From contig OZ244881.1 in NCBI GenBank assembly GCA_965221305.1, positions 854,091 to 918,090 of the forward strand: a stretch of DNA of 64,000 bases, written 5' to 3'. Made by a program: the position numbers and the translations under genes. Shown piece by piece: positions 4,775 to 42,267 of the stretch. How positions within the stretch are numbered: the stretch's first letter is position 1; each line of letters begins with the position of its first letter. The notes under the pieces are model-generated. The model saw nothing but the letters and a program-made list of their open reading frames with translations. It did no database searches and was not told where the DNA came from. This DNA comes from Vicinamibacterales bacterium. Lineage in GTDB: Bacteria > Acidobacteriota > Vicinamibacteria > Vicinamibacterales > UBA8438.

Positions 4775-4993
4775 ATGGCGGAAGACGTGGCGGCCCCGCT
4801 GGCCGGGAAGGTGCTGTCGATCGCGGTCGCGGTCGGCGCCGCCGTCGAGGAAGACGACGAGCTGCTGGTCCTCGAGGCGATGAAGATGGAGACGGTGGTG
4901 TACGCGCCGTGCGACGGCACGGTGACGGCGCTGCGGGTCGCGGTCGGCGACCAGGTCGACGAGGACGACCCGCTCGCGACGATCGGGGAGTGA
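4775..4993 (+). CDS. gcdC: Biotin carboxyl carrier subunit (biotinyl domain)
   Basis: ORF 4733..4993 trimmed to ATG 4775, which is preceded by GGAAGGA. It carries the biotinylation motif EAMKME. Confidence 0.8.
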   Translation: MAEDVAAPLAGKVLSIAVAVGAAVEEDDELLVLEAMKMETVVYAPCDGTVTALRVAVGDQVDEDDPLATIGE

Positions 4994-5002
4994 CGACGAG
5001 CC

Positions 5003-6160
5003 ATGGACTTCGAGCTGACGGGCGAGCAGAAGCTGGTGCAGGAGACGGCGCGCGAGTTCGCCGAGAACGACATCGCACCGACCCTCGTGGAGGAGGAGCG
5101 GGACCACGAGTTCCGGCTCGACCGGGTGCGGCGAATGGGTGAGCTGGGCTTCTTCTCCTGCGCCCTGCCGGAATCGCTGGGGGGCGCCGGGTTCGGCTTC
5201 GTGGAGTCGGTGCTCATGGCCGAGCAGGTCGCCAAGGTCTCGGCGTCGTGGCGGCTGCCGTTCAACATGCAGAACCTGGGGCCGGCCCTGACCGTGGCGA
5301 AGTTCGGCACCCCCGAGCAGCAGGAGCGGTTCGTTCCCGGCTGGGTGGCGGGCACGCAGATCGGCTTCTTCGGCATGACCGAGCCCGAGAGCGGCTCCGA
5401 CGTGGCGAGCATGACCACCGTGGCCCGCGACATGGGCGACCACTGGGAGCTGACGGGCAGCAAGATCTGGGTCTCGAACGCCACCCAGGGCGACGCGGGT
5501 CTGCTCTACGTCATGACCGATCCGGAGCGGAAGCACCGCGGCATGAGCGCGTTCATCCTCGAGCCGAAGAAGGTCGAGAACTTCGTGGCGACCGACATCG
5601 ACACCAAGCTCGGCCTGCACTGCGCGCCCACCGGGGAGATGGCGTTCCACGGCACGAAGCTTCCCAAGGACGCCCTGCTCGGCCAGCCCGGCGACGGGTT
5701 CCGGATCTGCATGTGGCAGCTCAACAACACGCGGCTGGGGTGCGCGGCGGGGGCCCTCGGGGTCGCCGGCGCGGCCCTCGACGCCGCCGTGAGCTACGCT
5801 AACGAGCGGACCCAGTTCGGCAAGCCCATCTCGCAGCACCAGATGGTGCAGGCGCAGATCGCGGAGATGGCGCTCGAGCACGAGGCGGCGCGGATGCTCG
5901 TGTACCGGGCCGCTTGGCTCAAGGACAACGGCCGTCCGAGCCAGTACGAGACGTCGCTGGCCAAGCTGCAGGCGAGCGAGGCGGCGGTGCACGCGGCCAA
6001 CGAGTGCATGAAGATCTACGGGTCGTACGGCTACTCCACGGAGTATCCGGCCGAGCGGCTCTACCGCGACGCCAAGTCGCTGCAGGTGGTCGAGGGCACG
6101 TCGAACGTGCAGAAGCTCATCATCTCGGGCATCGCCTGCGGCCATGCGCCGAACCGGTGA
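5003..6160 (+). CDS. Acyl-CoA dehydrogenase, possibly a glutaryl-CoA dehydrogenase
   Basis: 385-aa ORF with ACAD-family N-terminal, middle and C-terminal regions recognisable by eye (for example FGMTEPESGSDV and EGTSNVQKLIISG). It is embedded in the decarboxylase operon. Confidence 0.85.
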   Translation: MDFELTGEQKLVQETAREFAENDIAPTLVEEERDHEFRLDRVRRMGELGFFSCALPESLGGAGFGFVESVLMAEQVAKVSASWRLPFNMQNLGPALTVAKFGTPEQQERFVPGWVAGTQIGFFGMTEPESGSDVASMTTVARDMGDHWELTGSKIWVSNATQGDAGLLYVMTDPERKHRGMSAFILEPKKVENFVATDIDTKLGLHCAPTGEMAFHGTKLPKDALLGQPGDGFRICMWQLNNTRLGCAAGALGVAGAALDAAVSYANERTQFGKPISQHQMVQAQIAEMALEHEAARMLVYRAAWLKDNGRPSQYETSLAKLQASEAAVHAANECMKIYGSYGYSTEYPAERLYRDAKSLQVVEGTSNVQKLIISGIACGHAPNR

Positions 6161-6173
6161 AGAGGACCGCACA

Positions 6174-7907
6174 GTGAAGCCGTATTTCGAGACGATGGAC
6201 CGGTTCGGCAAGCCCCTCAAGCCGGGCAGGGCGAAGCGGGCGGCCGAGAGCGCGGAGGCGCTGCGGGCGGTGGAGGCGGACATCGCGGCGGCGGCCCGGA
6301 CGGCCGAGGAAGCCGGCTTCTCCACCGAGAAGATCAACCAGCGGGGCTGGATGACCGTGTACCAGCGGTTGGAGTACCTGTTGGACCCCGGCACGTGGCG
6401 CCCGCTTCACACCCTCTACAACCCGGCCGAGAACGACGAGGGCGTCACCAACGTCGTCGACGGCCTCGGGCGCATCGAGGGTCGATGGGCGGTGGTCATC
6501 GGGTTCGACAACAAGGTCATGGCGGGGGCGTGGCTGCCCGGCCAGTCCGAGAACATCCTGCGCGCCACCGACCTCGCGCGGCGGCTCAACGTGCCCCTCG
6601 TGTGGCTCGTCCACTGCAGTGGGGCGAAGCTGCCCGAGCAGGAGAAGTTCTACGCGAACCGGCGCGGGGCGGGGACGCCGTTCTTCCGGCACGCGGAGCT
6701 CGAGCAGGCCGGCATTCCGGTGCTGGCCGGCATCTACGGCACGAACCCCGCCGGCGGGGGGTACCAGTCGGTCAGCCCGACGATTCTGCTCGCGCACCAG
6801 GACGCCAACATGGCCGTCGGCGGGGTCGGCATCGTCTCCGGCATGGCGCCCAAGGGCGGGTTCGACACCGCCATGGTCGAGGAGATCATCGCGAGAACCC
6901 GCGAGTTCACGGCGCGCCCCCCCGGTGATGTCGCCACCCACCACGAGGCCACCGGTTTCTTCACGCGGGTCTACGACGAGGAGACCGGCGTCCTCGACGG
7001 GTTGAAGGAGTACATGCGCGCGACGCCCGCCTACGGCCCCGAGTTCTTCCGGGCGGCGGCGCCGAAAGACCCCGCGTTCCCGGTCGACGACCTCTACCAC
7101 CTGCTGCCCGTCAACCAGAAGGAGGTCTACGACTTCGACGAGGTGCTGGCCCGGCTCGTCGACGGCAGCGAGCGCCTCGAGTTCCGGCCCGACTACGGCC
7201 CCGAGGTGTTCACGGGGGTCTGCAAGGTCGACGGCCGGCTCGTCGGCTGCATCGGCAACCGGCAGGGCTATCTGGGGAAGGGCTATCCCGAGTACGGCGA
7301 CTACCCGGGCATGGGAGGCAAGCTCTACCGGCAGGGGCTCGTCAAGATGAACGAGTTCGTCACCCTCTGCGGCCGCGACCGGCTGCCCGTCGTCTGGTTC
7401 CAGGACACGTCGGGCATCGACGTCGGCGAGCGGGCCGAGCAGGCCGAGGTGCTCGGCCTCGGGCAGGCCCTGATCTACTCGATCCAGCAGACCGACGTGC
7501 CGATGATGCTAGTGGTCTTGCGGAAGGGCACGGCGGCCGCCCACTACGTCATGGGCGGCCCCACCGCCAACCGCCACAACGCGTTCACCCTCGGCACCCC
7601 CGCCACCGAGATCGAGGTGATGCACGGCGAGACCGCGGCCGTCGCCACCTACGCCCGCCGCGCCGCCAAGGAGCATGCCGCGGGGCGCTCCCTCGACCCC
7701 GTCATCGACCGCATGAACGCGCTGGTCGGCCGCTACCACGAGACCTCGCGGCCCGCCTACTGCGCCCGGCAGGGCTTCGTCGACGAGGTCGTGGCCCTCG
7801 CCGACCTGCGAGGCTACCTGCAGGCGTTCACCGGCGCCGCCTACCAGAATCCCGTCTCGATCTGCCCCCGGCACCACATGCTGCTCCCCCGCGTCATCCG
7901 GGGGTAG
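6174..7907 (+). CDS. gcdA: Glutaconyl-CoA decarboxylase alpha subunit-like carboxyltransferase
   Basis: Carboxyltransferase ORF whose strings I recall as GcdA-like (GIYGTNPAGGGYQSVSPTILLAHQDANMAVGG). I chose GTG 6174, which follows AAGAGGA. The alternative ATG 6144 would overlap the ACAD stop. Confidence 0.8.
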   Translation: MKPYFETMDRFGKPLKPGRAKRAAESAEALRAVEADIAAAARTAEEAGFSTEKINQRGWMTVYQRLEYLLDPGTWRPLHTLYNPAENDEGVTNVVDGLGRIEGRWAVVIGFDNKVMAGAWLPGQSENILRATDLARRLNVPLVWLVHCSGAKLPEQEKFYANRRGAGTPFFRHAELEQAGIPVLAGIYGTNPAGGGYQSVSPTILLAHQDANMAVGGVGIVSGMAPKGGFDTAMVEEIIARTREFTARPPGDVATHHEATGFFTRVYDEETGVLDGLKEYMRATPAYGPEFFRAAAPKDPAFPVDDLYHLLPVNQKEVYDFDEVLARLVDGSERLEFRPDYGPEVFTGVCKVDGRLVGCIGNRQGYLGKGYPEYGDYPGMGGKLYRQGLVKMNEFVTLCGRDRLPVVWFQDTSGIDVGERAEQAEVLGLGQALIYSIQQTDVPMMLVVLRKGTAAAHYVMGGPTANRHNAFTLGTPATEIEVMHGETAAVATYARRAAKEHAAGRSLDPVIDRMNALVGRYHETSRPAYCARQGFVDEVVALADLRGYLQAFTGAAYQNPVSICPRHHMLLPRVIRG

Positions 7908-8167
7908 GAGCCTGCGTGACCCCCGCTGGTCCGCCCCGCGTCGGGCCAACCCGGAATCCCGTTTCGATCTGCCCCCGGCACCACATGCTGCTCCCCCGCG
8001 TCATCCGGGGGTAGGAGCCTGCGTGACCCCCGCTGGTCCGCCCCGCGTCGGGCCAATTCGGAATCCCGTCTCGATCTGCCCCCGCCACTACATGCTGCTC
8101 CCCCGCGTCATCCGGGGGTAGGAGCCCGCGTGACCCCCGCTGGTCCGCCCCGCGTCGGGCCAATTCG
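7847..8167 (+). repeat. 107-bp tandem repeat, 3 copies, made of the last ~19 codons and stop of gcdA plus ~47 nt downstream
   Basis: GAATCCCGT starts at 7847, 7954 and 8061. I count 3-4 mismatches between copies, and each copy keeps the TAG stop in frame. Confidence 0.95.
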
Positions 8168-8289
8168 GCCATCCGTGGTCCGGCGTGGGGCCGGTCGTGG
8201 TGAGGGGCGGGAGCGAAATCCGCGCGGTTCGGCCATACGAGGGACCGTGGCGGGCACGGGAATGGCGCCCGACCGTCGACTCGGCGGCG

Positions 8290-9408
8290 TCACGGGCCGA
8301 GACGGTCGAACTTCTGCACGCGCTGGCCGACGTTGACCTCGGTCGTGTAGAGGTTGCCCCGGGTGTCGACGGCGAGGTTGTGCAGCCGGTAGAACTGGCC
8401 CGCGTTCTTGCCGAGACGGCCGAATCGGTCGCGCACCTCGAGGGTCTCGCGGTCGAGGATCCAGATGACGTTGTTGGTCCCGTCCGGGATGTACAGCCAG
8501 CGCTGCTCGGGGTCTTCGGAGAGCGTGACGCCCGAGACCGATCCGCTGCCGAGGGTCGCCGGGCGCACGAACGCCTCCCTGATGAACGTGCCCTGCTTGT
8601 CGAAGATCTGGAGGCGGTTGTTCGTGCGGTCGGCCACGTAGACGAGCCCGTCGTGGGCGATGGCGACGTCGTGTACGGGGCTGCGGTAGTGGCGGATGGG
8701 CTCGGCGTCGGGGTCGTAGGGGGGCAGGGGGCTGTCATCGGGGCGCTCGCCGTAGGCGCCCCAGTGCCGGCGGTACTCGCCGGTGTCGGCGTCGAAGACG
8801 ATGACGCGGCGGTTGCCGTAGCCGTCGGCGACGTAGACCTCGTTGGCCTCGGGGTCCACCCGGATGCCGGCGGGTCGCCCCAGATTCGCGGTGTCGTTGC
8901 TGCCGCCGCTCTGGCCCGCGCGGCCGATCTGCAGCAGGAACTCGCCGTCCTTGGTGAACTTCAGGATGTGGGCGTCGCCGGCCGCGTTCCCGCCGATCCA
9001 GACGTGTTCCTGATGGTCGACGTGGATGCCGTGCTCGCTCTCGGGCCACTCGTAGCCGTCGCCGGGTCCGCCCCACGACCGCAGGACGTTGCCGTCGGGG
9101 TCGAGCTCGATGACCGGCGGCGCGGGGACGCAGCACATCCCTTCCTCCCCACGCTGCCGGGCGTCGAGGGTCCGCGGCCGGTGGAGCACCCAGACGTGGT
9201 CGTCCGCATCGACGTCGATGCCCGAGACCTGCCCGAGCATCCAGTCGTCCGGCAGCTCGCGCGCCCAGAACGGGTCGACGCGGAACTGCGGGGCGTCCTC
9301 GCCGGGCTGCGCCGGCTGGGCCGGCCCGGGGTTCGCGGCGCCGGCGGCCAATGCGAGCGCCAGGAACAGGGCTGGCCTTCCGATCCGGTGGTCCCAATTC
9401 GTCATCAT
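8290..9408 (-). CDS. Secreted NHL-repeat beta-propeller protein (peptidylglycine-amidating-lyase-like)
   Basis: ORF 8290..9618 trimmed to ATG 9408 (MMTNWDHRIGRPALFLALALAAG signal). It has repeated YVADxxNxR-type NHL motifs. Confidence 0.7.
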   Translation of the reverse strand: MMTNWDHRIGRPALFLALALAAGAANPGPAQPAQPGEDAPQFRVDPFWARELPDDWMLGQVSGIDVDADDHVWVLHRPRTLDARQRGEEGMCCVPAPPVIELDPDGNVLRSWGGPGDGYEWPESEHGIHVDHQEHVWIGGNAAGDAHILKFTKDGEFLLQIGRAGQSGGSNDTANLGRPAGIRVDPEANEVYVADGYGNRRVIVFDADTGEYRRHWGAYGERPDDSPLPPYDPDAEPIRHYRSPVHDVAIAHDGLVYVADRTNNRLQIFDKQGTFIREAFVRPATLGSGSVSGVTLSEDPEQRWLYIPDGTNNVIWILDRETLEVRDRFGRLGKNAGQFYRLHNLAVDTRGNLYTTEVNVGQRVQKFDRLGP

Positions 9409-9711
9409 ACCGCCTACGATAACATCAGGACGCTGGGCCGGAGTCCGTCGGTCGGCCGGTGAGGGCCGAGGCTCTCGTCGGACGTGAAGCCCACCTCGCG
9501 CGGCCCCGAGCGGGATGGGGGGCACGTGGGATCGATGCACCGGAGTGGGAGGAACCGGCGGGCCGAGTCCGCTGCGGCGCGCACGGTCCACGATTGCACT
9601 ACAATGCCAGACCCACACACTGCTGGCCGGACCCGGTTTCCGCCGGTGGGGTCGCCGGGACCCGGCGAGAGACCCGGAACAGCGGCCGGCGGCGCCGAGG
9701 AGGAACGCGGA

Positions 9712-10515
9712 ATGAAGTGGCTATCGACCGTCGTCGTCGTGCTGGCCCTCGTGGCGCCGGCCCAAGCCCAGCTCGCCGTGCCCAACGAGGCCGGGATCAC
9801 CTACGGGCACGTTCACCTGAACGTCAGCGACATCGAGGTCCACAAGAAGCTGTGGGTCGAATGGTTCGGCGGCGAGGTCGTCGAAAGGGGGCCGTTGACC
9901 ACCATCCGCCTGCCCAACTTCCTGATCGCGTTGACGGAGCGGGAGCCGACGGGCCCCATGCAAGGCTCGGTGCTCGATCACTTCGGGTTCAAGGTGCGCA
10001 ACACCACCGAGTTCGTGCAGCGGTGGCGCGAGGCGGGCATGGAGGTCGGGCCGGAGTTCATCGGCTCGGAGGGGATGCCCAACGCCTACGTCATGGCTCC
10101 GGACGGCGTCTGGGTCGAACTGCAGGAGGACCCGTCACTGCACGTCCCCATCGCCGGTTACCACATTCACTTCTTCACGCCGCAGTACGAAGAGCTGCTG
10201 GACTGGTACACGGAGGTCTTCGGCCTCCGCATCCGTCCGCGCGGTCGTATCGAGACGACGACCGACGTGCCCGGCATGAACATGAGCTTCGGGGCGGGCA
10301 GCGTCGACGAACCGGCCGGGACACGCGGGCGCGCCCTCGACCACATCGGCTTCGAGGTGGACGACCTGGAGGCGTTCTGCGAGCGGCTCGAGGCGATGGG
10401 TATCGAGTTCGATGTCGAGTATCGCGAGATCGACAGCGTCCAACTGAAGGTCGCCTTCCTCACCGATCCCGCGGGCACTTACATCGAGCTGACGGAAGGC
10501 TACGACGCGTACTAG
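9712..10515 (+). CDS. Secreted two-domain VOC (glyoxalase/bleomycin-resistance/dioxygenase) family protein
   Basis: ORF trimmed to ATG 9712, which follows GAGGAGGA. It has the signal peptide MKWLSTVVVVLALVAPAQA and two VOC-like halves (HVHLNV... and LDHIGFEV...). Confidence 0.75.
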   Translation: MKWLSTVVVVLALVAPAQAQLAVPNEAGITYGHVHLNVSDIEVHKKLWVEWFGGEVVERGPLTTIRLPNFLIALTEREPTGPMQGSVLDHFGFKVRNTTEFVQRWREAGMEVGPEFIGSEGMPNAYVMAPDGVWVELQEDPSLHVPIAGYHIHFFTPQYEELLDWYTEVFGLRIRPRGRIETTTDVPGMNMSFGAGSVDEPAGTRGRALDHIGFEVDDLEAFCERLEAMGIEFDVEYREIDSVQLKVAFLTDPAGTYIELTEGYDAY

Positions 10516-33352: not shown

Positions 33353-33774
33353 CACGACCAAGCCCTGCTGCGGGAGGTCATGAACACCGTCGGCCGGCCC
33401 GGCGCCTTCGGCGGGTCCGTCCGCTGCGTGGTCCCATCTCGATGGTGACCGAGGGCTGAGACGCCCGCACCGTCACCCACATCCTGGGCGTGCGCGCCTT
33501 CGGCACCCAGCTGCTCTGCGAGCAGGTCGTCGGGCGCGCCCTGCGCCGGCAGTCGTACGACATCAACGAGCACGGTCTGTTCGACGTCGAGTACGCCGAC
33601 GTGCTCGGCATCCCCTTCGACTTCACGGCCAAGCCGACGCTGGCCTTCGCCGAGCTGACCGATGTCTACGCCATGGAGGAAGACTTCGAGGCGGCGGTAA
33701 GGGTGCGGTTCCAGGCGGTGGTCGAGCAGGCGGATGAGCTATCCGCGGTGGCGCTGGCTCGGTCTCGGCGCTAA
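33353..33774 (+). pseudogene. C-terminal fragment of a type III restriction enzyme Res / DEAD-helicase subunit, disrupted
   Basis: The hand translation reads LLREVMNTVGRPGAFGGSVRCVV, then a 1-nt frameshift, then ISMVTEG, then TGA at 33457-33459 where Trp is expected, then DARTVTHILGVRAFGTQLLCEQVVGRALRR. This covers only the helicase motif V/VI region. No N-terminal part is present. Confidence 0.7.
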
Positions 33775-33792
33775 CTTGTCGGCGCTAACTTG
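33765..33792 (+). repeat. 14-bp tandem duplication including the stop of the res-fragment ORF
   Basis: TCGGCGCTAACTTG occurs at 33765-33778 and again at 33779-33792. Confidence 0.85.
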
Positions 33793-33825
33793 ACGGTGAG
33801 TGGTCAACGGCATAGGCTAGTTCAT

Positions 33826-34086
33826 ATGCCTGCATCGTCCAACGCGCACTCCCCTGTCCGCCGCGTGCGGTTGTTCCGTAATGGACGCAACCAGGCGCTG
33901 CGGATTCCCCGCGAATTCGAGCTGGAGGGGTCAGAGGCCATCCTGCGGCGGGAGTCGGACTGCCTGGTCATCGAGCCTGTCCGTCGGGGGCGGCTGCTCC
34001 GCCTGCTGGCCGACCTGCCGCCCCTGGCGGAAGCGTTCCCCGACGTGGACGGCACGCTCGGGCCGCTCGACGATGTGGACGTGTGA
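33826..34086 (+). CDS. vapB: VapB-type antitoxin (AbrB/SpoVT fold)
   Basis: 86-aa ORF starting at ATG 33826, with the string VRLFRNGRNQALRIPREFEL. Its end overlaps the following PIN gene. Confidence 0.8.
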   Translation: MPASSNAHSPVRRVRLFRNGRNQALRIPREFELEGSEAILRRESDCLVIEPVRRGRLLRLLADLPPLAEAFPDVDGTLGPLDDVDV

Positions 34087-34526
34087 CCGTGCCGCGACGG
34101 TTTCTGCTCGACACGAACGTCGTTTCCGACGTGGCGCGGTTTCCGCAGGGTCCGGTCGCCGCTCGCATCGCGGCGGTCGGCGAGGCTCAGGTGTGCACCA
34201 GCATCGTGGTGGCCGCCGAGTTGCGCTACGGGGCCGCCCGCAAGGGGTCCGAACGCCTGATCCGACGCATCGACGTCATTCTCTCGGGGCTCGACGTCCT
34301 GCCGTTCGACGCGCCGGCCGACCTGCACTACGCCGAGTTGCGAACGCACCTCGAGCGTCACGGCACACCGATCGGTCCGAACGACATGCTAATCGCCGCC
34401 CAGGCGTTGGCCTCGGACCTGACGGTGGTCACGGCGAACGGCGCCGAGTTCCGCCGGGTGCCCGGACTGCTCGTCGAGGACTGGCGGGCCGGGGCGGGTC
34501 CCGCCGTGCCGCGTTTCCCGCGTTGA
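34083..34526 (+). CDS. vapC: PIN-domain toxin VapC
   Basis: 147-aa ORF with FLLDTNVVSD near the N-terminus. It overlaps vapB by 4 nt. Confidence 0.85.
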   Translation: MTVPRRFLLDTNVVSDVARFPQGPVAARIAAVGEAQVCTSIVVAAELRYGAARKGSERLIRRIDVILSGLDVLPFDAPADLHYAELRTHLERHGTPIGPNDMLIAAQALASDLTVVTANGAEFRRVPGLLVEDWRAGAGPAVPRFPR

Positions 34527-34713: not shown

Positions 34714-34995
34714 GTGGCGAAGAGGCAAACGCTCGCCGTGCGTGACTATCGCGACCGGCTGAAGCGAGGCGGATGGGTCCGTTGCGAGGTCAAGGTGCGC
34801 CACGACGACGTCGAGCTCATTCGCACCGTGGCCACCGCGCTGCGCGATCCGGATCGCCACGCCGCCACGCGTGCACTGCTGCGTGACCGTTTGGGTGGCC
34901 CGCGCCCGCGCGGCTTCAGGGAGCTGCTCGCCTCGTGTCCGGTCGACCTCGACATCGATCGGCCCCGCGATCTCGGTCGCGACATCGGGGTTTGA
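34714..34995 (+). CDS. VapB/FitA-like antitoxin
   Basis: Starts at GTG 34714 after GAAGGGAGG. The C-terminal tail ...DIDRPRDLGRDIGV is typical of PIN-partner antitoxins. Its stop overlaps the next gene's start (TGATG). Confidence 0.6.
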   Translation: MAKRQTLAVRDYRDRLKRGGWVRCEVKVRHDDVELIRTVATALRDPDRHAATRALLRDRLGGPRPRGFRELLASCPVDLDIDRPRDLGRDIGV

Positions 34996-35405
34996 TGTTC
35001 CTCCTCGACACCAACGTCATCTCGGAAGTGCGCAAGGCGGACCGTTGCAACGCCGGCGTGGCCAAGTGGTTCTCCGGCGTGAACGATGCCGACCTGTTCA
35101 TCAGCGTCGTTGTGACCGGCGAGATCCGGCAAGGCATCGAGCGCCTCCGCCGGCGCGATTCCCGCCAGGCGGAGACCCTCGAGCGTTGGCTAGTGGACGT
35201 CGTGACGTCGTACGCCGACCGCGTCCTGCCGATTGACGGTCGCGTCGCCGACGCCTGGGGCCGCCTGGGCGCCGTCCGTCCGGTGCCGGTCATCGACGGG
35301 CTTCTGGCCGCCACCGCCCGTGTGCACGACATGACCCTCGTCACCCGCAACGCCCCGGACGTCGAGGGTCTCGGCGCCCAGGTCCTGAATCCCTTCGACG
35401 CGTGA
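34995..35405 (+). CDS. vapC: PIN-domain toxin (VapC/FitB-like)
   Basis: 136-aa ORF starting at ATG 34995, beginning MFLLDTNVISE and containing TRN near the C-terminus. Confidence 0.85.
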   Translation: MFLLDTNVISEVRKADRCNAGVAKWFSGVNDADLFISVVVTGEIRQGIERLRRRDSRQAETLERWLVDVVTSYADRVLPIDGRVADAWGRLGAVRPVPVIDGLLAATARVHDMTLVTRNAPDVEGLGAQVLNPFDA

Positions 35406-35527: not shown

Positions 35528-35842
35528 ATGCTCAAGAGGCGAGCCACGAAGTCCGAGGCGCTCAGGCCCGGCGGGGCGTCGCGCAAGAACATCCCGACCG
35601 CCGAGTTCCGGCCGGTGATGGCTCGGTCCGAGCAGAGTCCCGTCCGGGTGGCCTACGAGCGGCGCAACCACGACCTCGACCCGCAGCTCGTCTGGCGCGG
35701 CAAGGACGCGCAGAACGCGTCTGACCTCGTCGTGCAGGCGCCGCCGCTCTACATCCAGGAGAGGGTGCACCCCAAGGTGCTCGTCGACGACCTGCGCCGG
35801 CAGCAGGGAACGGCACTGGAACGCGACAGGGCGAACGAGGGG
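35528..35842 (+). pseudogene. N-terminal fragment (~100 aa) of a type III R-M Mod-like DNA methyltransferase
   Basis: The strings RKNIPTAEFRPVM...LDPQLVWRGKD...APPLYIQERVHPKVLVDDLRR match the conserved N-terminus of type III Mod proteins. No catalytic domain follows. It reads in frame into a HicB-like segment. Confidence 0.6.
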
Positions 35843-36073
35843 ATGCGCATGGGGTACACCGCGGTCGTGAAGCAATCCGGGGAATGGTGGATCGGCTGGA
35901 TCGAGGAAATTCCGGGGGTCAACTGCCAGGAGCGCACGCATGAGGAATTGCGGCGAAGCCTCGCAGTTGCGCTTGCGGAAGCGTTGGAGTTCAGACACGG
36001 AGAGATCAACGATGTCCTGGCTCGCAAGATCTGTCGCGACCTCGGCGTCGATGCGATCGGACGAAGCAGGTAG
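35843..36073 (+). CDS. HicB-like antitoxin segment (UPF0150) with an aberrant C-terminal tail
   Basis: The string MRMGYTAVVKQSGEWWIGWIEEIPGVNCQERTHEELRRSLAVALAEALEF is typical of short HicB proteins. It shares a reading frame with the Mod fragment, and no hicA partner is seen. Confidence 0.55.
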   Translation: MRMGYTAVVKQSGEWWIGWIEEIPGVNCQERTHEELRRSLAVALAEALEFRHGEINDVLARKICRDLGVDAIGRSR

Positions 36074-36200
36074 GCGCAGAGGGCGGCCGGCCGGCTTCGT
36101 CGCGACGGGACGTGCAGGATGGGTTGCGTCCGAAGTGCGCGCGGCGCCCGCCGCAGCGGGCGACCTGCCCGGACGGTATTCGGGCGGGTGACGATCGACG

Positions 36201-37337
36201 GTGATGACCATGGAACTGGAGACGATCACGAGGGTCTCGGTGGAGCGGCTGCGCCTGGACCGGATGAACCCGCGGCTGGTCGGCGAGGGCGAGAACGCGT
36301 CGGACGAGTGGATCATCGCGCGGCTCTGGCGCTCGGCTGAGCTGGACGAGCTGTTGCAGTCGATGTCGGCCAACGGCTATCTGGACATCGAGCCGCTCGT
36401 CGTGCTGGCCGAGAGCGGCGTCGGCGACGATGCGTTGACCGTGCTGGAGGGCAACCGGCGGCTCGCCACGCTGCGACTGCTGCGGGAGCCGGCCCTGGTC
36501 GCCAGGATCGCGTCCGCCGAGAGCGCCCGCATCACGGTTCCGAAGATCAGCGAGGCGGTACTGGGGACGCTCGACGAGGTCTCGGTGTACCCGGTTGGGG
36601 ACCGAAGCCGCGCGCGGGCGTTCATCGGCTTCAAGCACATCAACGGCCCGGAGAAATGGGACGCCTATGCGAAGGCGCGGTTCGCGGCGGAGTGGTATCA
36701 GGAAGGCCGGAGCCAGGGCATCGGACTCGACGACATAGCGAACGCCATCGGCGATCGCCACGATACGGTGAAGCGAATGGTGGCAGGGATCTACGTGCTG
36801 GACCAAGCGCGAAATGAAGGCCTGTTCGACATCGAGGATCGCCACTCCCGGAGATTCAATTTCTCGCACCTGTATACGGCGCTCGCGCGGTCTCAGTACA
36901 TGGACTATCTGGGGCTGGAGAGCGCTTGGTCGCGATACGACCCGCGAGTGGAACCGGTGCCAGCGGACAGGCTCCAGCGGCTGAGACAGGTGCTCGTCTG
37001 GATCTACGGTTCCAAGGCCGACGACGTAGAGCCGGTCGTACAACAGCAGAACCCCGATATCAAGCGGCTCGGCGAAGTGCTCGCCAACGCGGAGAGCCGC
37101 CTGGTTCTCGAGCATACGGCCGACCTGGACGAGGCTCACGCCAGTACGGAGTCGACGGACCGGCGCTTCACGGCGTCGCTGTTGCGGGCGCGCGACGAGC
37201 TGCGAGACGCGGCCGGAGCGACGAGAGCCTACGACGGGCGGGACCAGTCGCTGCTCGACATCGCCGAGGACGTAAAGGAAACGGCCGATGTCGTGTACTC
37301 GCGGATGGCGAAGAAGCGACGGGAGGCGACGGCGTGA
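36201..37337 (+). CDS. ParB/Srx N-terminal-domain protein (378 aa) with a C-terminal region of unknown function
   Basis: N-terminal strings VERLRLDRMNPRL and LEGNRRLATLRLL form a ParB-box-like GxxRR arginine patch. Its stop overlaps the next start. Confidence 0.7.
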   Translation: MMTMELETITRVSVERLRLDRMNPRLVGEGENASDEWIIARLWRSAELDELLQSMSANGYLDIEPLVVLAESGVGDDALTVLEGNRRLATLRLLREPALVARIASAESARITVPKISEAVLGTLDEVSVYPVGDRSRARAFIGFKHINGPEKWDAYAKARFAAEWYQEGRSQGIGLDDIANAIGDRHDTVKRMVAGIYVLDQARNEGLFDIEDRHSRRFNFSHLYTALARSQYMDYLGLESAWSRYDPRVEPVPADRLQRLRQVLVWIYGSKADDVEPVVQQQNPDIKRLGEVLANAESRLVLEHTADLDEAHASTESTDRRFTASLLRARDELRDAAGATRAYDGRDQSLLDIAEDVKETADVVYSRMAKKRREATA

Positions 37338-38332
37338 TGGCTCTCTACCTGCCGATCGACGAGGTGACGGGCCCGACAATTGACATCGATCGCGCGGCCG
37401 ACTTCCTGGAGCTGAGTGCGTTCGTGGCGACGGATTCCTCGGTGAGAACGTCCGGCCTGGCGGGTGCGGTCTCGGTCGGCGCCGCTGAAGACCATCACGA
37501 CGTGGACAACGAGATGCAAGGGGGCGACGAGGACATCGGTCGTGAGACGGTGGACCGAATCGACTCGCGGCAGTCCGCGCTGGGTGAGGTCTATCCGTTC
37601 GCGCTCGACGAGAGCGGCGGCGTGCTGACGTGCGAGGCGACGGCACCGTCGGTCGGGCAGGCCGCCTACCTGCTGAGCCTGTTGCTGTCTAATCTCCGGG
37701 CCGTGACGCCGATGCTCGAAAACTCCGGCATTCACCCGACCGACGCCGAGGTCCGACTACTGCGGTCCCACTTCCAGTGCTGCGCCACGGCGGCGCTGGC
37801 CGCGGAAGTGCAGGGCGACGCCTGGTCGTTCGGATTCCCGCGGTCGGACGGCTCCGGGTTCCTGGACAAGCTAAAAGAGATCTGGCAGAGCCTCGGGGAC
37901 GGGAACGTCGAACGGCAACCCGGAGCGCCGACGCGGCCGCAGGACGATCAAGTCGATGTCTTCGCCGCGCGCCTGCACGCCGACGGCCTGCCCGGATTCC
38001 TGCTCGCCGCGGCGCAAGTAGCTACCGGGAAGGACGCGCGAGAGAAGTCGCTGAAGGGGCATTTGGGCGCGTTCAGGAGCCGCTGGTTCAGTACGCAGCC
38101 CGTGACGGAGTTCATTCCCTACATGATCGTGCCGTTCGCCATCGAGGACAGTCGGTTCATCGACGACGTGCGCGTGATGGGCAACGTCCTGCACCGCCTC
38201 CGTGTGCCTCGTCTTGTAGCGGCAGCCGCACCGTTGGCGGAGGCGGGCGTGACGGTCGAAGGGTACAATCGTCTGCCCGAGGTCGTCCGATGGGTCGGCG
38301 ACTACCGCAACCGGGCGAGGACGGCGGCATGA
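37337..38332 (+). CDS. Hypothetical protein (331 aa) with no recognisable domain
   Basis: The ATG at 37337 shares one nucleotide with the upstream TGA (TGATG). Its stop overlaps the downstream ATG (ATGA). Coding-like GC3 runs throughout. Confidence 0.65.
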   Translation: MALYLPIDEVTGPTIDIDRAADFLELSAFVATDSSVRTSGLAGAVSVGAAEDHHDVDNEMQGGDEDIGRETVDRIDSRQSALGEVYPFALDESGGVLTCEATAPSVGQAAYLLSLLLSNLRAVTPMLENSGIHPTDAEVRLLRSHFQCCATAALAAEVQGDAWSFGFPRSDGSGFLDKLKEIWQSLGDGNVERQPGAPTRPQDDQVDVFAARLHADGLPGFLLAAAQVATGKDAREKSLKGHLGAFRSRWFSTQPVTEFIPYMIVPFAIEDSRFIDDVRVMGNVLHRLRVPRLVAAAAPLAEAGVTVEGYNRLPEVVRWVGDYRNRARTAA

Positions 38333-39417
38333 GGCATCGGTTCCACTCGATCTGTCCGTATTTCGCGATGTTCCCGGAGACGTTCGTCGAGAAGCACCTC
38401 GCGGCGACGCCGCACCGCGGCGTGGTCTTCGATCCGTACTGCGGGCGGGGCACCACGGTGTTCCAGGCGCTGCTGCAGGGCAGAGCCGCGGCCGGCTCCG
38501 ACGTGAATCCCGTCGCGGTCTGCGTCTCGGGCGCGAAGGGCGATCCGCCGGCGTCGGCGGACGCGAGGGCGCGCCTCGATGCGCTGCGGCAGGGCTGCCG
38601 CGAGCCGCGCGACGAGGGTTGGCAGGGTGAGATCGAGCCGTTCTTCGATCTCTGCTTTCATCGAGACACGCTGCGGCAGGTGCGCTATCTGCGGTCCGTG
38701 CTCGACTGGCGGAACCGCAGGGACGATCGCTTCATCGCCGCCCTGTGCCTCGGCGCGCTGCACGGCGAGTCGCACAAGTCGCCGAACTGCTTCAGCAACC
38801 GCATGCCGCGGACGATCAGCACGAAGCCGGACTACTCGGTTCGGTGGTGGACCCGGCGCGCGTACGCGCCGCCGGCGCGGGACGTCTTCGAGATCCTCGA
38901 ACGGATGATCGAGTACCGGTTCCGGAGCGCCCCGCCGACGGGACGGGCGACGGTGGTGCAGACGGACGCGCGCCGAGCCGCGGCGGCGTTCCCGGCCCTG
39001 GCCGGCCGCGTGACGGACGTGATCACGTCGCCGCCCTACCTCGACACCACCAACTACCGCGAGGACCAGTGGCTGCGGCTCTGGTTTCTCGGCGGGGCGG
39101 CGCGGATGCCCCAGGGTCGGCGCGACGACCGGCACTACGACAAGGGTATCTATTGGACGTTCATCCAGGAGTCGATGGCGGGGTTGGCGCCGCTGCTGGC
39201 CGACCGCGCGAGGCTGGTCCTCCGCATCGGGGGACGGCGGCTGGAGAAGTCGGAGCTGCGGGAGGGCCTGGTGCGTTCTCTGGGGCGCGGCCTGGGGCGC
39301 GACGTGCGGCTCGTCGACGACGGCGTCACGACGGAAGTCGGCAAGACCCAGGCCAACGTGTTCCGGGGCGCGAGGGTGTCGCGCTTCGAGGAACACGATT
39401 TCTGCTTCGCGGTGTGA
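38329..39417 (+). CDS. DNA methyltransferase (N6-A/N4-C type, SPPY catalytic motif)
   Basis: 362-aa ORF with the AdoMet motif FDPYCGRGTT at residues 34-43, preceded by CPYFAMFP. The motif TSPPY lies at residues 233-237. Confidence 0.75.
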   Translation: MRHRFHSICPYFAMFPETFVEKHLAATPHRGVVFDPYCGRGTTVFQALLQGRAAAGSDVNPVAVCVSGAKGDPPASADARARLDALRQGCREPRDEGWQGEIEPFFDLCFHRDTLRQVRYLRSVLDWRNRRDDRFIAALCLGALHGESHKSPNCFSNRMPRTISTKPDYSVRWWTRRAYAPPARDVFEILERMIEYRFRSAPPTGRATVVQTDARRAAAAFPALAGRVTDVITSPPYLDTTNYREDQWLRLWFLGGAARMPQGRRDDRHYDKGIYWTFIQESMAGLAPLLADRARLVLRIGGRRLEKSELREGLVRSLGRGLGRDVRLVDDGVTTEVGKTQANVFRGARVSRFEEHDFCFAV

Positions 39418-39574
39418 GGCGCGCGCGCCCGATGCGCTTGCCCCGCGGATCCCGCGCCCGCCGGGGCGCCTTCGAACCGCCGCGGTCGAGCCGGAGGCGC
39501 CCGCGCCCGATGCGCTTGTCCCGCGGATCCCGCGCGCGCCGGGGCCCCTTCGAACCGCCGCGGTCGAACCGACC
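39418..39574. repeat. 78-bp tandem duplication between the methyltransferase and helicase genes
   Basis: CCCGATGCGCTTG occurs at 39428 and 39506. The copies are about 90% identical by eye. Confidence 0.85.
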
Positions 39575-39601
39575 GAGCCTGGACATCCGTGCGCTCCTCT
39601 C

Positions 39602-40972
39602 GTGACTGTCCGCCTTCGCTTCGCCGCCGGCACGCTGGACATCAGCGGGTTCGACAGAGCCGCCGAACCGCCTCTGCCCGACGCCTGCCGGTGGGACCCG
39701 CGGACCCGGCGGTTCCGCGCGCCGGCCGCCGCCTATGCGCCGGTGGTGCGGGCCCTGCTGCGCCGCCGGATCGCATACGAGGACGAGGCCCGGGGCTACG
39801 GCGTCCTCGACGGGGGCCTGCGGGTGCGCCGCGAGCCTCGACCCTTCCAGGACGAGGCGGTCGAGGCATGGCGGGCCGCGCACGGGCGCGGGGTCGTCGT
39901 CCTGCCGACGGGGGCCGGCAAGACCGAGGTGGCGCTGCTGGCCGTGGACGCCGTGCGCCGCGACACCATCGTGGTGGCGCCGACCCTCGATCTGGTGGGG
40001 CAGTGGCACCGGCTGCTGCGCGAGCGGTTTCGGACGGAGATCGGCGTCCTCGGCGGCGGCGACCATCGCGTCGAGGCCATCACCGTCTCGACCTACGACT
40101 CGGCCTACATCCACATGGAGCACCTCGGCGCGCGCTTCGGCCTCGCCGTGTTCGACGAGTGCCATCACCTGCCCGGCCCCGCCTACGCGCTGGCGGCCGA
40201 GCGCTGCCTCTCGCCCTATCGGCTCGGCCTGACCGCGACCCCGGAGCGCCTGGACGGCCGCCACGCCGACCTCGAATCGCTGGTCGGACCCGTCGTCTAC
40301 CGCAAGCGGGTCCGCGACCTCACCGGCGAGTACCTCGCCGACCACGATGTCGAGCGCATTCTCGTGGAGCTGACCGACGACGAGCGCCGCGCCTACGACG
40401 AGGCGCGCGCGGTCTACCGGTCGTTCGTCGTGGGCAAGGGCATTCGGATGTCGAGCCCCGACGGGTGGTCGCAGTTCGTCATGCGCTCGTCGCAGAGCGC
40501 GGAGGGGCGGCGCGCGATGGCCGCTTACCAGCGCCACAAGGAGATCGCGTTCGCGGCGCCCTCCAAGCTCGCCTACGTCGACGAGCTGCTGCACCGGCAC
40601 CGGCGCGACCGTGCGCTGCTGTTCACCGAGCGCAACCGCACCGCGTACGCCTTGTCCCGCCGGTTCCTCCTGCCCATCATCACCCACCAGACGAAGGTCT
40701 CCGAGCGCACCCGCATCCTCGATGACCTCGGCGCCGGCGTCTACAACGCGCTCGTCACGTCGAAGGTCCTGAACGAGGGCGTGGACCTGCCCGCCGCGAG
40801 CGTCGGCATCGTCATCTCCGGCAGCGGCTCGGCGCGCGAGCACGTGCAGCGGCTCGGCCGCCTCCTCCGCAAGCAGGGCGACAAGACCGCGGTCCTCTAC
40901 GAGCTCGTCGCGAACGACACGACCGAGGTGTTCACGAGCGAGCGGCGCCGGGAAGCCCATGCCGAGGGCTGA
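39602..40972 (+). CDS. XPB/Rad25-like superfamily-2 DNA helicase
   Basis: 456-aa ORF with LPTGAGKT (Walker A), FDECHHL, GLTATPER, and a short N-terminal damage-recognition-like domain. It starts at GTG. Confidence 0.8.
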   Translation: MTVRLRFAAGTLDISGFDRAAEPPLPDACRWDPRTRRFRAPAAAYAPVVRALLRRRIAYEDEARGYGVLDGGLRVRREPRPFQDEAVEAWRAAHGRGVVVLPTGAGKTEVALLAVDAVRRDTIVVAPTLDLVGQWHRLLRERFRTEIGVLGGGDHRVEAITVSTYDSAYIHMEHLGARFGLAVFDECHHLPGPAYALAAERCLSPYRLGLTATPERLDGRHADLESLVGPVVYRKRVRDLTGEYLADHDVERILVELTDDERRAYDEARAVYRSFVVGKGIRMSSPDGWSQFVMRSSQSAEGRRAMAAYQRHKEIAFAAPSKLAYVDELLHRHRRDRALLFTERNRTAYALSRRFLLPIITHQTKVSERTRILDDLGAGVYNALVTSKVLNEGVDLPAASVGIVISGSGSAREHVQRLGRLLRKQGDKTAVLYELVANDTTEVFTSERRREAHAEG

Positions 40973-41040
40973 TCGGGCGCGGGTGCGGGCGCGCGGCGCC
41001 CTTGCCCCGAACGCGGAGGGCGTCGGCGCCGAGAACGAAC

Positions 41041-42267
41041 ATGCTGACGACTGACCTCGTGCGCGTGCGGCGGCGCGGCGGTCGCATCGAGGCCCGCCGG
41101 CTGGGCCGCGCCGAGCGCGGGCGCCTGTTGGAAGCGGCCGACGGTTACGTCGCGGCCGCGCAGGCCGGGGTCGGCCGGCCCCGTGCGGCGTTCGAGGCGG
41201 CGTGCGACGACGTGCCGTGCGAGCCCACCGACTACAAGCTGCTCCGGGGCCTTCGGAAGCTCGTGCGGGACCGCTGCGTCTTCGAGACGCCGGCGGACGT
41301 GGACGCGCCGGCCTTGCGGCGCGCCGTCTTCGCCCGCGCCGCCGCGGCTCGGCGCGCCCTGAACGACGACGACGCGTTCGAGCGCGACGCCGTCATCGCG
41401 CCGGCCGCCGCCGAGTGCGGCCTGACGGCGCGCGACGTGCCCGACGCGCTCTTCGCTGACCTGAAGGAGCACCAGGTCCTGGCACGGTTCGACGCCGTCG
41501 GGGGGCCGGCCCTCGTCGCCGCCTACGAGACCGCGCAGCACCAGGCGATACTCCTGCGGGCGGTTCGCGTCGTCGTCACGTTCGACCGGCCCGACCCCGG
41601 CGGGTTCCGGCTCTTCTTCCGCCGGCTGAAGTTCCATCGGCTGCTCTACGTCGCGACCCGGCCGTCCGCGGGGGTGTGCCGCGTCGAGATCGACGGGCCG
41701 TTCAGCCTGTTCCGGTCCGTCACCGCCTACGGCCTGCAGCTCGCGCTCCTGCTGCCGGCCCTCGATGCCTGCGGCTGCCGCTGGGAGCTCGACGCCGACG
41801 TCCTGTGGGGCCCCGAGCGGCAGGCGCTCGAGTTCCATCTCGAAGGCGAGCCGGCGACCGGGGTCGCCGACGAGGAAGCGCGCCTGCCCGACGAGGTCGC
41901 CCGGTTGCGCGACCGGTTCCGGCGGATGAAGACGCGGTGGACGGTCGCGGTGGCGCACGAGCTGCTCGACGTGCCCGGCTTCGGTCTGTGCGTCCCCGAC
42001 CTCGTCTTCACCCACGCCGGCACCGGCCGCCGGGTCTACTTCGAGGCGCTGGGCTACTGGAGCCGCGAGGCCGTGTGGCGCCGGGTGGATCTGGTCGAGG
42101 CGGGGCTCCCTCATCCGGTCATCTTCGCCGTCAGCCGCCGGCTGCGGGTCAGCGAGGAGGTCCTCGACGAGCAGCTTCCCGGCCAGCTCTACGTCTACGC
42201 GGGCGCCATCAGCGCCCGCGCCGTCGAAGAGCGCCTCGAGGCCGGCCTGGCCGCGCCGCGCAGTTGA
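41041..42267 (+). CDS. DUF790 (Bax1-like) endonuclease
   Basis: Trimmed to ATG 41041, beginning MLTTDLVRVRRRGGRIEARRL. The C-terminal nuclease-like block CVPDLVF...RRVYFEALGYWS matches the DUF790 layout as I recall it. Confidence 0.75.
   Translation: MLTTDLVRVRRRGGRIEARRLGRAERGRLLEAADGYVAAAQAGVGRPRAAFEAACDDVPCEPTDYKLLRGLRKLVRDRCVFETPADVDAPALRRAVFARAAAARRALNDDDAFERDAVIAPAAAECGLTARDVPDALFADLKEHQVLARFDAVGGPALVAAYETAQHQAILLRAVRVVVTFDRPDPGGFRLFFRRLKFHRLLYVATRPSAGVCRVEIDGPFSLFRSVTAYGLQLALLLPALDACGCRWELDADVLWGPERQALEFHLEGEPATGVADEEARLPDEVARLRDRFRRMKTRWTVAVAHELLDVPGFGLCVPDLVFTHAGTGRRVYFEALGYWSREAVWRRVDLVEAGLPHPVIFAVSRRLRVSEEVLDEQLPGQLYVYAGAISARAVEERLEAGLAAPRS

Follow-up and report, generated by a model that had tools for sequence, protein, structure and literature searches.

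A methylase-linked three-gene operon encoding ParB-like and nuclease-like proteins, a candidate relative of the PD-lambda-5 defence system

PD-lambda-5, which was recovered by functional selection in E. coli, is carried by prophages and protects against nine of the ten phages tested (PMC9519451). It is the only one of 21 validated systems with a methylase (Vassallo et al. 2022, PMC9519451) and was described by its authors as compacted RM+Abi, that is, restriction-modification (R-M) with abortive infection; its cloning needed an mrr-deleted host, which suggests active methylation (PMC9519451). ParB-DUF262 proteins (GmrSD, SspE, DndB and Menshen NsnA) are sensors of DNA or of its modification that are coupled to a nuclease effector (PMC12065111), and proteins of the ParB fold can bind nucleoside triphosphates (NTPs) other than cytidine triphosphate (CTP), with a preference that is not predictable from sequence alone (bioRxiv 10.1101/2025.10.10.680097; PMC12704722). 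Here we analyse a 64,000-nt stretch of a Vicinamibacterales genome (the window, to which positions refer unless another locus is named), in which three adjoining genes encode a ParB/Noc-like protein (gene A), a protein of an uncatalogued family (gene B) and a DNA methyltransferase (gene C). It seems reasonably probable that this triad is one horizontally mobile R-M-type defence operon, a three-gene relative of PD-lambda-5 in which C would mark DNA, A sense it and B cut it.

The three genes lie on the + strand as overlapping open reading frames (ORFs): gene A at 36201-37337 (378 aa from a GTG at 36201), gene B at 37337-38332 (331 aa) and gene C at 38329-39417 (362 aa). The stop codon of A and the start codon of B share the sequence TGATG at 37335-37339, and those of B and C share ATGA at 38329-38332, exactly as an initial annotation of the window had claimed; both overlaps are read as translational coupling. 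A visible TGATG or ATGA marks the A/B boundary in 23 of 25 related genome loci, and the overlap is therefore not due to chance, while the 4-nt geometry of the B/C overlap likewise recurs in relatives. Gene A has alternative start codons, ATG at 36204 and ATG at 36210, and one of these is more likely to be used than the GTG because the database gene call is 377 aa long and many homologues have 375 aa.

These 25 loci come from a scan of one genome per species, in which colinearity was assessed by tblastn with the window proteins, and they represent Vicinamibacterales and other Acidobacteriota, Latescibacterota, Alpha- and Gammaproteobacteria, Thermodesulfobacteriota and Thermoanaerobaculia. The order A-B-C is colinear in 24 of the 25, across at least five phyla or classes, with identities to the window proteins of 60-81% for A, 57-78% for B and 67-88% for C, whose orthologues stand directly after B in the same number of loci. 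The proposal that the three genes form a unit is thereby borne out. The genes around them are far less constant. The gene upstream is a type III Mod in 10 loci and elsewhere is PIN-like or encodes an AAA_21 ATPase; C is followed by a NERD/UvrD-like helicase in 10 loci, by a lone HsdR-like protein in 4, by housekeeping genes in 5 and elsewhere by an SNF2 fragment. Chromosomal triads have as neighbours R-M genes of types III and I, NERD/UvrD helicases, PIN and AAA_21 genes and toxin-antitoxin (TA) modules. Since the flanks vary, since housekeeping genes follow C in five loci, and since the triad of the window is whole beside type III res and mod genes of which only fragments are left, the triad is best described, from gene content, as an autonomous core within defence islands.

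Gene A is predicted to consist of an N-terminal domain of the ParB/Srx NTP-binding type, a helix-turn-helix (HTH) region and a C-terminal helical tail. The N-terminal domain carries the motifs LRLDxxNPR, EPLVV, LEGNRRLA (the arginine box) and KHxNGPxKW, and the arginine patch that the initial annotation had noted in the ParB/Srx domain, LEGNRRLATLRLL, is present, with EGNRR at residue 82 of the protein that starts at ATG 36204. Among 48 diverse homologues LxLDxxNPR, EPL, VLEGNRRLA and KHxNGPxxW are invariant or nearly so, and we take these conserved motifs to be the equivalents of ParB boxes I, II and III. The AlphaFold2 (AF2) model of the protein is of moderate quality (pLDDT 70), its last ~90 residues being modelled as long helices at low confidence; Foldseek pairs the model, across its N-terminal domain and HTH region, with Noc, C. 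crescentus ParB and Spo0J (probability 1.0, E 1e-4 to 1e-2), and the N-terminal domain alone with sulfiredoxin and SerK. The protein also matches the PADLOC PD-Lambda-5_A models with its N-terminal part (1e-17), the PADLOC candidate PDC-M38A (4.6e-18) and, over its full length, phrog_3694 in PHROGs (2e-79), and found no match in NCBIfam or among PDB sequences. Its phage homologues are named 'ParB N-terminal domain-containing protein' in RefSeq, and one homologue carries a precomputed PF02195 match. The ParB assignment is accordingly drawn from PADLOC, the RefSeq names, this single homologue and Foldseek, and not from Pfam. Taken together, motifs and model indicate a ParB/Noc fold with the signature of the NTP pocket intact, and NTP binding is predicted. 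The PDC-M38A model (PDLC04607, 715 positions) is an unpublished candidate that matches gene A over residues 46-355, and A and its phage homologues match about positions 58-355 of it, which is further than their match to PD-Lambda-5_A extends; no composition or description of a PDC-M38 system was found in the literature searched.

Like the ParB/Noc/KorB clamps, gene A thus has the N-terminal fold followed by an HTH region and the motifs NPR, EPL(V)V and GxRRxxA, and within the ParB/Srx fold it shows the GxxRxxA arginine box of the ParB/Noc family in the form of an invariant EGNRRLA. It differs from them in lacking a Pfam ParBc match, in its C-terminus and in its partners, which are a nuclease-like protein and a methylase; no ParA-like gene occurs in any locus examined. 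The combination of a ParB-superfamily NTPase domain with a DNA-binding domain is shared with the ParB-DUF262 proteins. The latter, however, bear a DGQQR/QRxxxW signature and are either modification-dependent (type IV) or tied to phosphorothioation or to an ABC ATPase, whereas gene A is not a DUF262 protein and is paired with a methylase. Searches of PADLOC, Pfam (E<=10) and NCBIfam gave no match of gene A to DUF262, DUF1524, GmrSD, Ssp, Dnd or Menshen, and the DUF262 plus DUF1524 HNH combination of GmrSD-type type IV enzymes was found in neither Pfam (E<=10) nor PADLOC.

The relationship to PD-lambda-5 is partial. Marinobacter phage AS1 encodes a bona fide PD-lambda-5 in gp27 and gp26, which match PD-Lambda-5_A over most of the length (1e-42) and PD-Lambda-5_B (4e-103), respectively. 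When gene A was compared with AS1 gp27 by hhalign, only residues 1-190 aligned (98%, 26% identity), the EGNRR box among them, and gene A correspondingly matches positions ~4-165 (to 235 in one model) of PD-Lambda-5_A profiles that are 440-500 aa long. The D12 methylase that adjoins A-B in viral contigs, described below, is itself a PD-Lambda-5_B protein (1.7e-94), while the best 25 of the 32 PADLOC matches of gene C in the window include no PD-Lambda-5_B and are of the MTase_II/oMTase, N6_N4 type. Both systems, then, join a protein with a ParB-like N-terminal domain to a DNA methyltransferase and are carried by prophages, and in the viral-contig relatives the D12 partner is also of the PD-Lambda-5_B type. 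They differ in that the A protein of PD-lambda-5 has 440-500 aa and another C-terminal half, whereas that of the triad has 375 aa and a helical tail; in that PD-lambda-5 has two genes and the triad three, with B always present and without detectable similarity to PD-Lambda-5_A; and in the methylase of the window, which is of the N6_N4 type with SPPY. A full-length PD-Lambda-5_A, a PD-Lambda-5_B partner and a two-gene architecture are all absent from the window triad. We also considered that B might be the missing C-terminal half of PD-Lambda-5_A, an idea left unsupported by hhalign, which found no similarity between B and AS1 gp27.

These comparisons suggest that the triad and PD-lambda-5 are sister architectures: the ParB-type module is common to both, as is the methylase in some of the family, and what remains of the non-methylase function is probably provided by a separate gene B in the triad and by an unrelated C-terminal half in PD-lambda-5. 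Its sequence relationships thus make the triad a three-gene relative of PD-lambda-5 that has yet to be named, rather than a system of a categorically new kind. The initial annotation had proposed an undescribed defence module, and this holds in so far as PADLOC, Pfam and NCBIfam assign the triad to no named system and the literature searched contains no description of a named ParB, nuclease and methylase system in three-gene form. It must be qualified to the extent that the ParB domain of A is homologous to PD-Lambda-5_A and the viral D12 neighbours are PD-Lambda-5_B. A survey of the ParB-CTPase fold mentions methylase fusions and prophage enrichment, not an A-B-C operon (bioRxiv 10.1101/2025.10.10.680097; PMC12704722). 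What would be new is a conserved, mobile, methylase-linked three-gene module without a name in current catalogues, of a kind (R-M / PD-lambda-5) that is already known. The further statement that hallmarks of BREX, DISARM, Dnd and Ssp are lacking is correct: PADLOC and NCBIfam searches with A, B and C gave no match to PglZ or BrxC, to DrmA/B, to DndACDE or SspBCD, or to DpdA of Dpd systems.

Gene B, in which the initial annotation had recognised nothing, has no match in Pfam (E<=10), NCBIfam, PADLOC or among PDB sequences, and neither a profile of 84 diverse homologues searched against PDB sequences nor each of these members searched against Pfam gave a match. To judge from these searches, B is in no catalogued restriction-enzyme family. 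It does match phrog_14650, a PHROGs family of unknown function (1e-21), and its own family is large: 814 relatives were scored in 90% clusters, and at 50% identity the family comprises 870 representative clusters. For B, AF2 gives a good model (pLDDT 80, pTM 0.85) that shows a small N-terminal helical or winged-helix-like part followed by a C-terminal alpha-beta-beta-beta-alpha-beta core; from residue 136 onwards the order is helix, strand, helix insert, strand, strand, helix, strand, a modelled succession that fits a PD-(D/E)xK core. The top PDB matches in Foldseek are weak (VC1899, MspJI, Can2, Ecl18kI, Bse634I and Cdn1; E 4e-3 to ~3), the best of them being PD-(D/E)xK nucleases of the restriction or CARF-associated kind; the small part of the protein matches forkhead/winged-helix domains, and among the top viral structures are several proteins of the 'restriction endonuclease', Mrr-domain and PD-(D/E)xK kinds (E 3e-2 to ~1). 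In the 84 sequences, which reach down to 17% identity, D22, E25, R78, Y86, P87, D203, D207, Q227 and R287 are invariant and K237 is nearly so. MspJI-type PD-(D/E)xK domains are among the best structural matches (Foldseek E ~1e-2, low TM-score), and D207 and Q227 stand at a spacing similar to that of what we take to be the D...QxK catalytic motif of MspJI; that enzyme, however, is a single-chain modification-dependent protein with an SRA-like domain, whereas B has alanine at the lysine position. Gene B is thus probably, though on weak support, a divergent nuclease of the restriction-endonuclease fold. The earlier view of B stands in that it belongs to no known endonuclease family, and falls short in that a weak resemblance to PD-(D/E)xK restriction nucleases can be discerned.

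The assignment of gene C is more straightforward. It matches Pfam N6_N4_Mtase (PF01555) at 1.3e-8 and PADLOC MTase_II (PDLC03325) at 2.3e-26 over residues 12-308, and the SPPY motif by which it was first recognised as a DNA methyltransferase is found at residue 234. The S-adenosylmethionine (AdoMet) motif, DPYCGRGT, is at residue 35 and so precedes the catalytic motif, the permuted order. On these motifs gene C is predicted with confidence to be a permuted methyltransferase of the N6/N4 amino-methyltransferase superfamily, and SPPY leaves either N4-cytosine or N6-adenine possible as the target of the predicted methylation.

The triad has counterparts in phages. A tblastn search with A against phage genomes returned 16 records, 15 of them with full-length matches: 13 belong to P2-like phages that infect E. 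coli or Yersinia, one to a Peduoviridae phage of Pseudomonas and one to an unclassified phage found in human faeces. In three records (two P2-like E. coli phages and the Pseudomonas phage) the A-like gene is followed by a hypothetical protein of ~300-370 aa and by a convergent C5-cytosine methylase, and in the two P2-like E. coli phages this triad lies between the portal gene and replication gene A. Although B itself gave no tblastn match in the phage collection, the hypothetical proteins are homologues of B, as follows from PHROGs, from pairwise BLASTP (E 2e-7 over 292 residues for the protein of vB_EcoM-12474III) and from the invariant residues of the B family that all three carry. The arrangement with the convergent C5 methylase is present in P2-like prophages of 140 of 5426 complete E. 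coli genomes (2.6%), E. coli O145 RM9872 and E. coli W among them, and the position beside the P2 portal is documented as a defence hotspot (PMC9519451). A 14-sequence alignment detected 28 further loci with B in IMG/VR; wherever the flank is present, A stands directly upstream of B, and in the 20 loci sampled the gene after A-B is a D12 N6-adenine methylase in 19 and an N6_N4 methylase in one. Three unrelated methylase families, in both co-directional and convergent orientation, therefore adjoin one and the same A-B pair. Such swapping of methylases around a constant A-B is what would be expected of a pair that forms the restriction half of an R-M-like system, and retention of a methylase neighbour despite the change of family fits modification-based immunity.

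Type II and type III R-M systems likewise place a methyltransferase beside a nuclease-fold protein, are co-transferred, lie in defence islands, have exchangeable methylase families and have genes that are convergent or co-directional and translationally coupled; in the window, the methyltransferase (PF01555/MTase_II) adjoins the putative restriction gene and is coupled to it by the ATGA. The triad departs from both types in its obligatory third component of ParB/Noc fold, in the absence of a helicase (Res) subunit and in that B belongs to no catalogued restriction-enzyme family. The initial annotation had set the locus apart from R-M types I-III. That is upheld as far as enzyme families are concerned, and yet, because B is probably a protein of the restriction-endonuclease fold, the system is best seen as an unusual R-M variant and not as something outside R-M logic.

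Gene order, coupling, modelled folds, conserved residues, conservation as a unit and exchange of methylase families are shown, and a mechanism built upon them may be proposed. C would methylate host DNA at a short motif as a self mark. A would serve as the DNA sensor, by means of its HTH region and nucleotide-controlled N-terminal domain, and would bind, and perhaps clamp and slide on, unmarked DNA. B, with its PD-(D/E)xK-like core (D...D...Q...K), would then be recruited or licensed by A to cut the unmarked DNA. The division of labour between A and B is based on analogy with ParB/Noc, with DUF262 sensors and with PD-(D/E)xK nucleases, and it is by analogy and sequence that a role in defence, the use of an NTP and the blocking of attack by methylation are likewise predicted. 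In a bolder form, which we consider doubtful although worth stating, the triad would be the prototype of an R-M class of its own, whose ParB-type NTP (possibly CTP) switch takes the place of the ATP motor of types I and III: A would load at unmethylated sites, become a sliding clamp and deliver or activate B, so that clamp loading, and not site recognition by the nuclease, would license cleavage. PD-lambda-5 would then be a fused, compact version, and downstream helicase-nucleases (NERD/UvrD, HsdR-like, XPB-Bax1) would be optional degradative add-ons.

Several observations weigh against a methylation-guided ParB/nuclease operon. Gene A has no Pfam match even at E<=10, ParBc included. The nuclease call for B leans on Foldseek E values of 4e-3 to 1 with low TM-scores, no sequence profile (the 84-member profile, Pfam or PDB) ties B to any nuclease family, and alanine occupies the canonical lysine position of (D/E)xK, so that K237 would have to be the catalytic lysine. 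Many of the genome loci come from the single order Vicinamibacterales, and their synteny partly reflects shared ancestry. One locus, on a conjugative element of a Thermodesulfobacteriota metagenome-assembled genome (L026, positions 4874-6984, near TraC), has A-B without a detectable methylase; the two ORFs downstream of the pair (255 and 165 aa) have no Pfam match. Finally, the methylases of vB_EcoM-12474III (L001, NC_049457) and Wphi (L003, NC_005056) are 98% identical, whereas the A proteins of the same phages are 32% and the B proteins 25% identical, a contrast that is awkward if A-B must match the sequence specificity of the methylase. Pairs of A and B that have diverged widely may recognise one and the same methylation, discrimination may depend less on matched sequences than it does in classical R-M, or the P2 phages may have a methylase that is to some degree independent.

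Among other explanations, the one that survives best is an ordinary type II R-M system in which B is the endonuclease, C the methylase and A only a transcriptional controller or timing device, a large ParB/KorB/VirB-type analogue of a C-protein that would have no share in sensing or cleaving DNA. The restriction-endonuclease-like core of B, the MTase_II call of gene C in PADLOC and the HTH region that A shares with ParB/Noc would all suit such a system, and the ParB-fold proteins KorB and VirB are CTP-dependent transcription regulators. Nevertheless, A is conserved and coupled to B as tightly as is C, the motifs of its NTP pocket are invariant across deep divergence, and in PD-lambda-5, a working system, a ParB-like domain is fused into the only protein besides the methylase, an arrangement that points to a core role; the C-proteins known to us, moreover, are small HTH proteins. 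We therefore hold a purely regulatory A to be unlikely. Less probable again is that A-B constitutes a methylation-independent defence or abortive-infection nuclease pair, with the methylases as passengers (orphan or anti-restriction) of the same hotspots. Orphan methylases are common in phages, L026 has A-B without one, and the P2 contrast of 98% with 25-32% identity looks as if cassettes were exchanged independently. Against this, the gene next to the pair encodes a methylase in 24 of the 25 genome loci, in each of the 20 viral loci sampled and at every P2-type locus examined; in the clade of the window it is coupled to B by the ATGA, and hitch-hiking does not readily explain why three families of methylase should occur, and in two orientations. 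A role outside defence, as a ParB-type partition or maintenance module or in epigenetic regulation or DNA modification of mobile elements, would accord with the ParB/Noc fold and HTH region of A and with residence on prophages and islands, but is most improbable given that neither a ParA gene nor a parS-like array was seen in the loci, that the module sits in chromosomal defence islands and in the P2 defence hotspot, that it has a nuclease-like partner and an obligatory methylase, and that its relative PD-lambda-5 is experimentally a defence system.

If the triad is indeed an R-M-type defence operon, a methylation-linked immune module that is widespread (~870 B clusters, from soil Acidobacteriota to E. 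coli prophages) would have escaped naming, with an effector family that has no Pfam entry and a sensor from the ParB-CTPase fold, whose roles beyond chromosome segregation are only now being charted. It would offer a mechanistic handle on PD-lambda-5, which is validated but unexplained, and would probe whether nucleotide-switch DNA clamps were recruited for discrimination of self from non-self. The versions in P2 prophages of E. coli would make the system directly testable in a model host.

The setting of the triad in the window is that of an island, as the initial annotation had judged by eye from its lower GC and from the TA modules and R-M debris around it. The GC content is 67.9% in the triad against 71.9% in the window, and at third codon positions (GC3) it is 83-92% against 94-99% in flanking genes; the lower values fit horizontal acquisition. 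A promoter and terminator consensus scan of 35700-39700 gave no match, a result that is uninformative given the high GC of the organism. Upstream lie a C-terminal remnant of a type III Res protein (33436-33732) and a remnant of type III Mod that corresponds to Mod residues 10-89 (35546-35785), both 80-89% identical to intact genes of related genomes; between them are two VapBC-type TA pairs (33790-34526 and about 34735-35405) and a HicB-like piece. The type III R-M system that left these remnants was dismantled recently. Membership of the triad in type III R-M was considered and rejected, because the Mod and Res genes beside it belong to a system of their own, whose copy in the window has decayed. 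Directly upstream of A in five relatives is a weakly PIN-like gene of ~165-225 aa (L005 4191-4868, L006 473-1150, L025 4191-4868, L008 4080-4577 and L021 4180-4668), which overlaps the start of A by 4 nt in L005, L006 and L025 and is absent from the window.

Downstream, an XPB-type helicase with an XPB damage-recognition domain (39602-40972) is paired with a Bax1/DUF790 nuclease (41002-42267). The helicase shows only helicase-level similarity to PbeA and dnd_restrict_1, far under the cut-offs, and the GC of the pair (39602-42267) is at the normal genomic level. The two genes fill the slot in which relatives have NERD/UvrD or HsdR-like helicase-nucleases. That they might belong to the triad is an idea that we reject, as neither adjoins it in any of the 25 loci. 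A helicase-nuclease as an obligatory fourth component was rejected as well: one follows C in ~15 loci, but five have housekeeping genes there instead and the phage versions lack such a gene. A helicase-nuclease of the NERD/UvrD or HsdR-like kind may be an optional fourth component. The loci with a NERD/UvrD-like helicase include L004, L008, L013, L014, L017, L021 and L024, at about 8080-10300 in each; the gene begins 3-4 nt after C in L004, L008 and L024, and its product carries a NOV_C domain in L017. The HsdR-like protein that follows C in L012, L023, L027 and L028 stands without HsdM/S. In the window, the gap from the methylase stop to the XPB start is spanned by two tandem copies of a 78-bp unit (39416-39571), which are 93% identical, rich in CCGCGG-type palindromes and without a further copy in the window.

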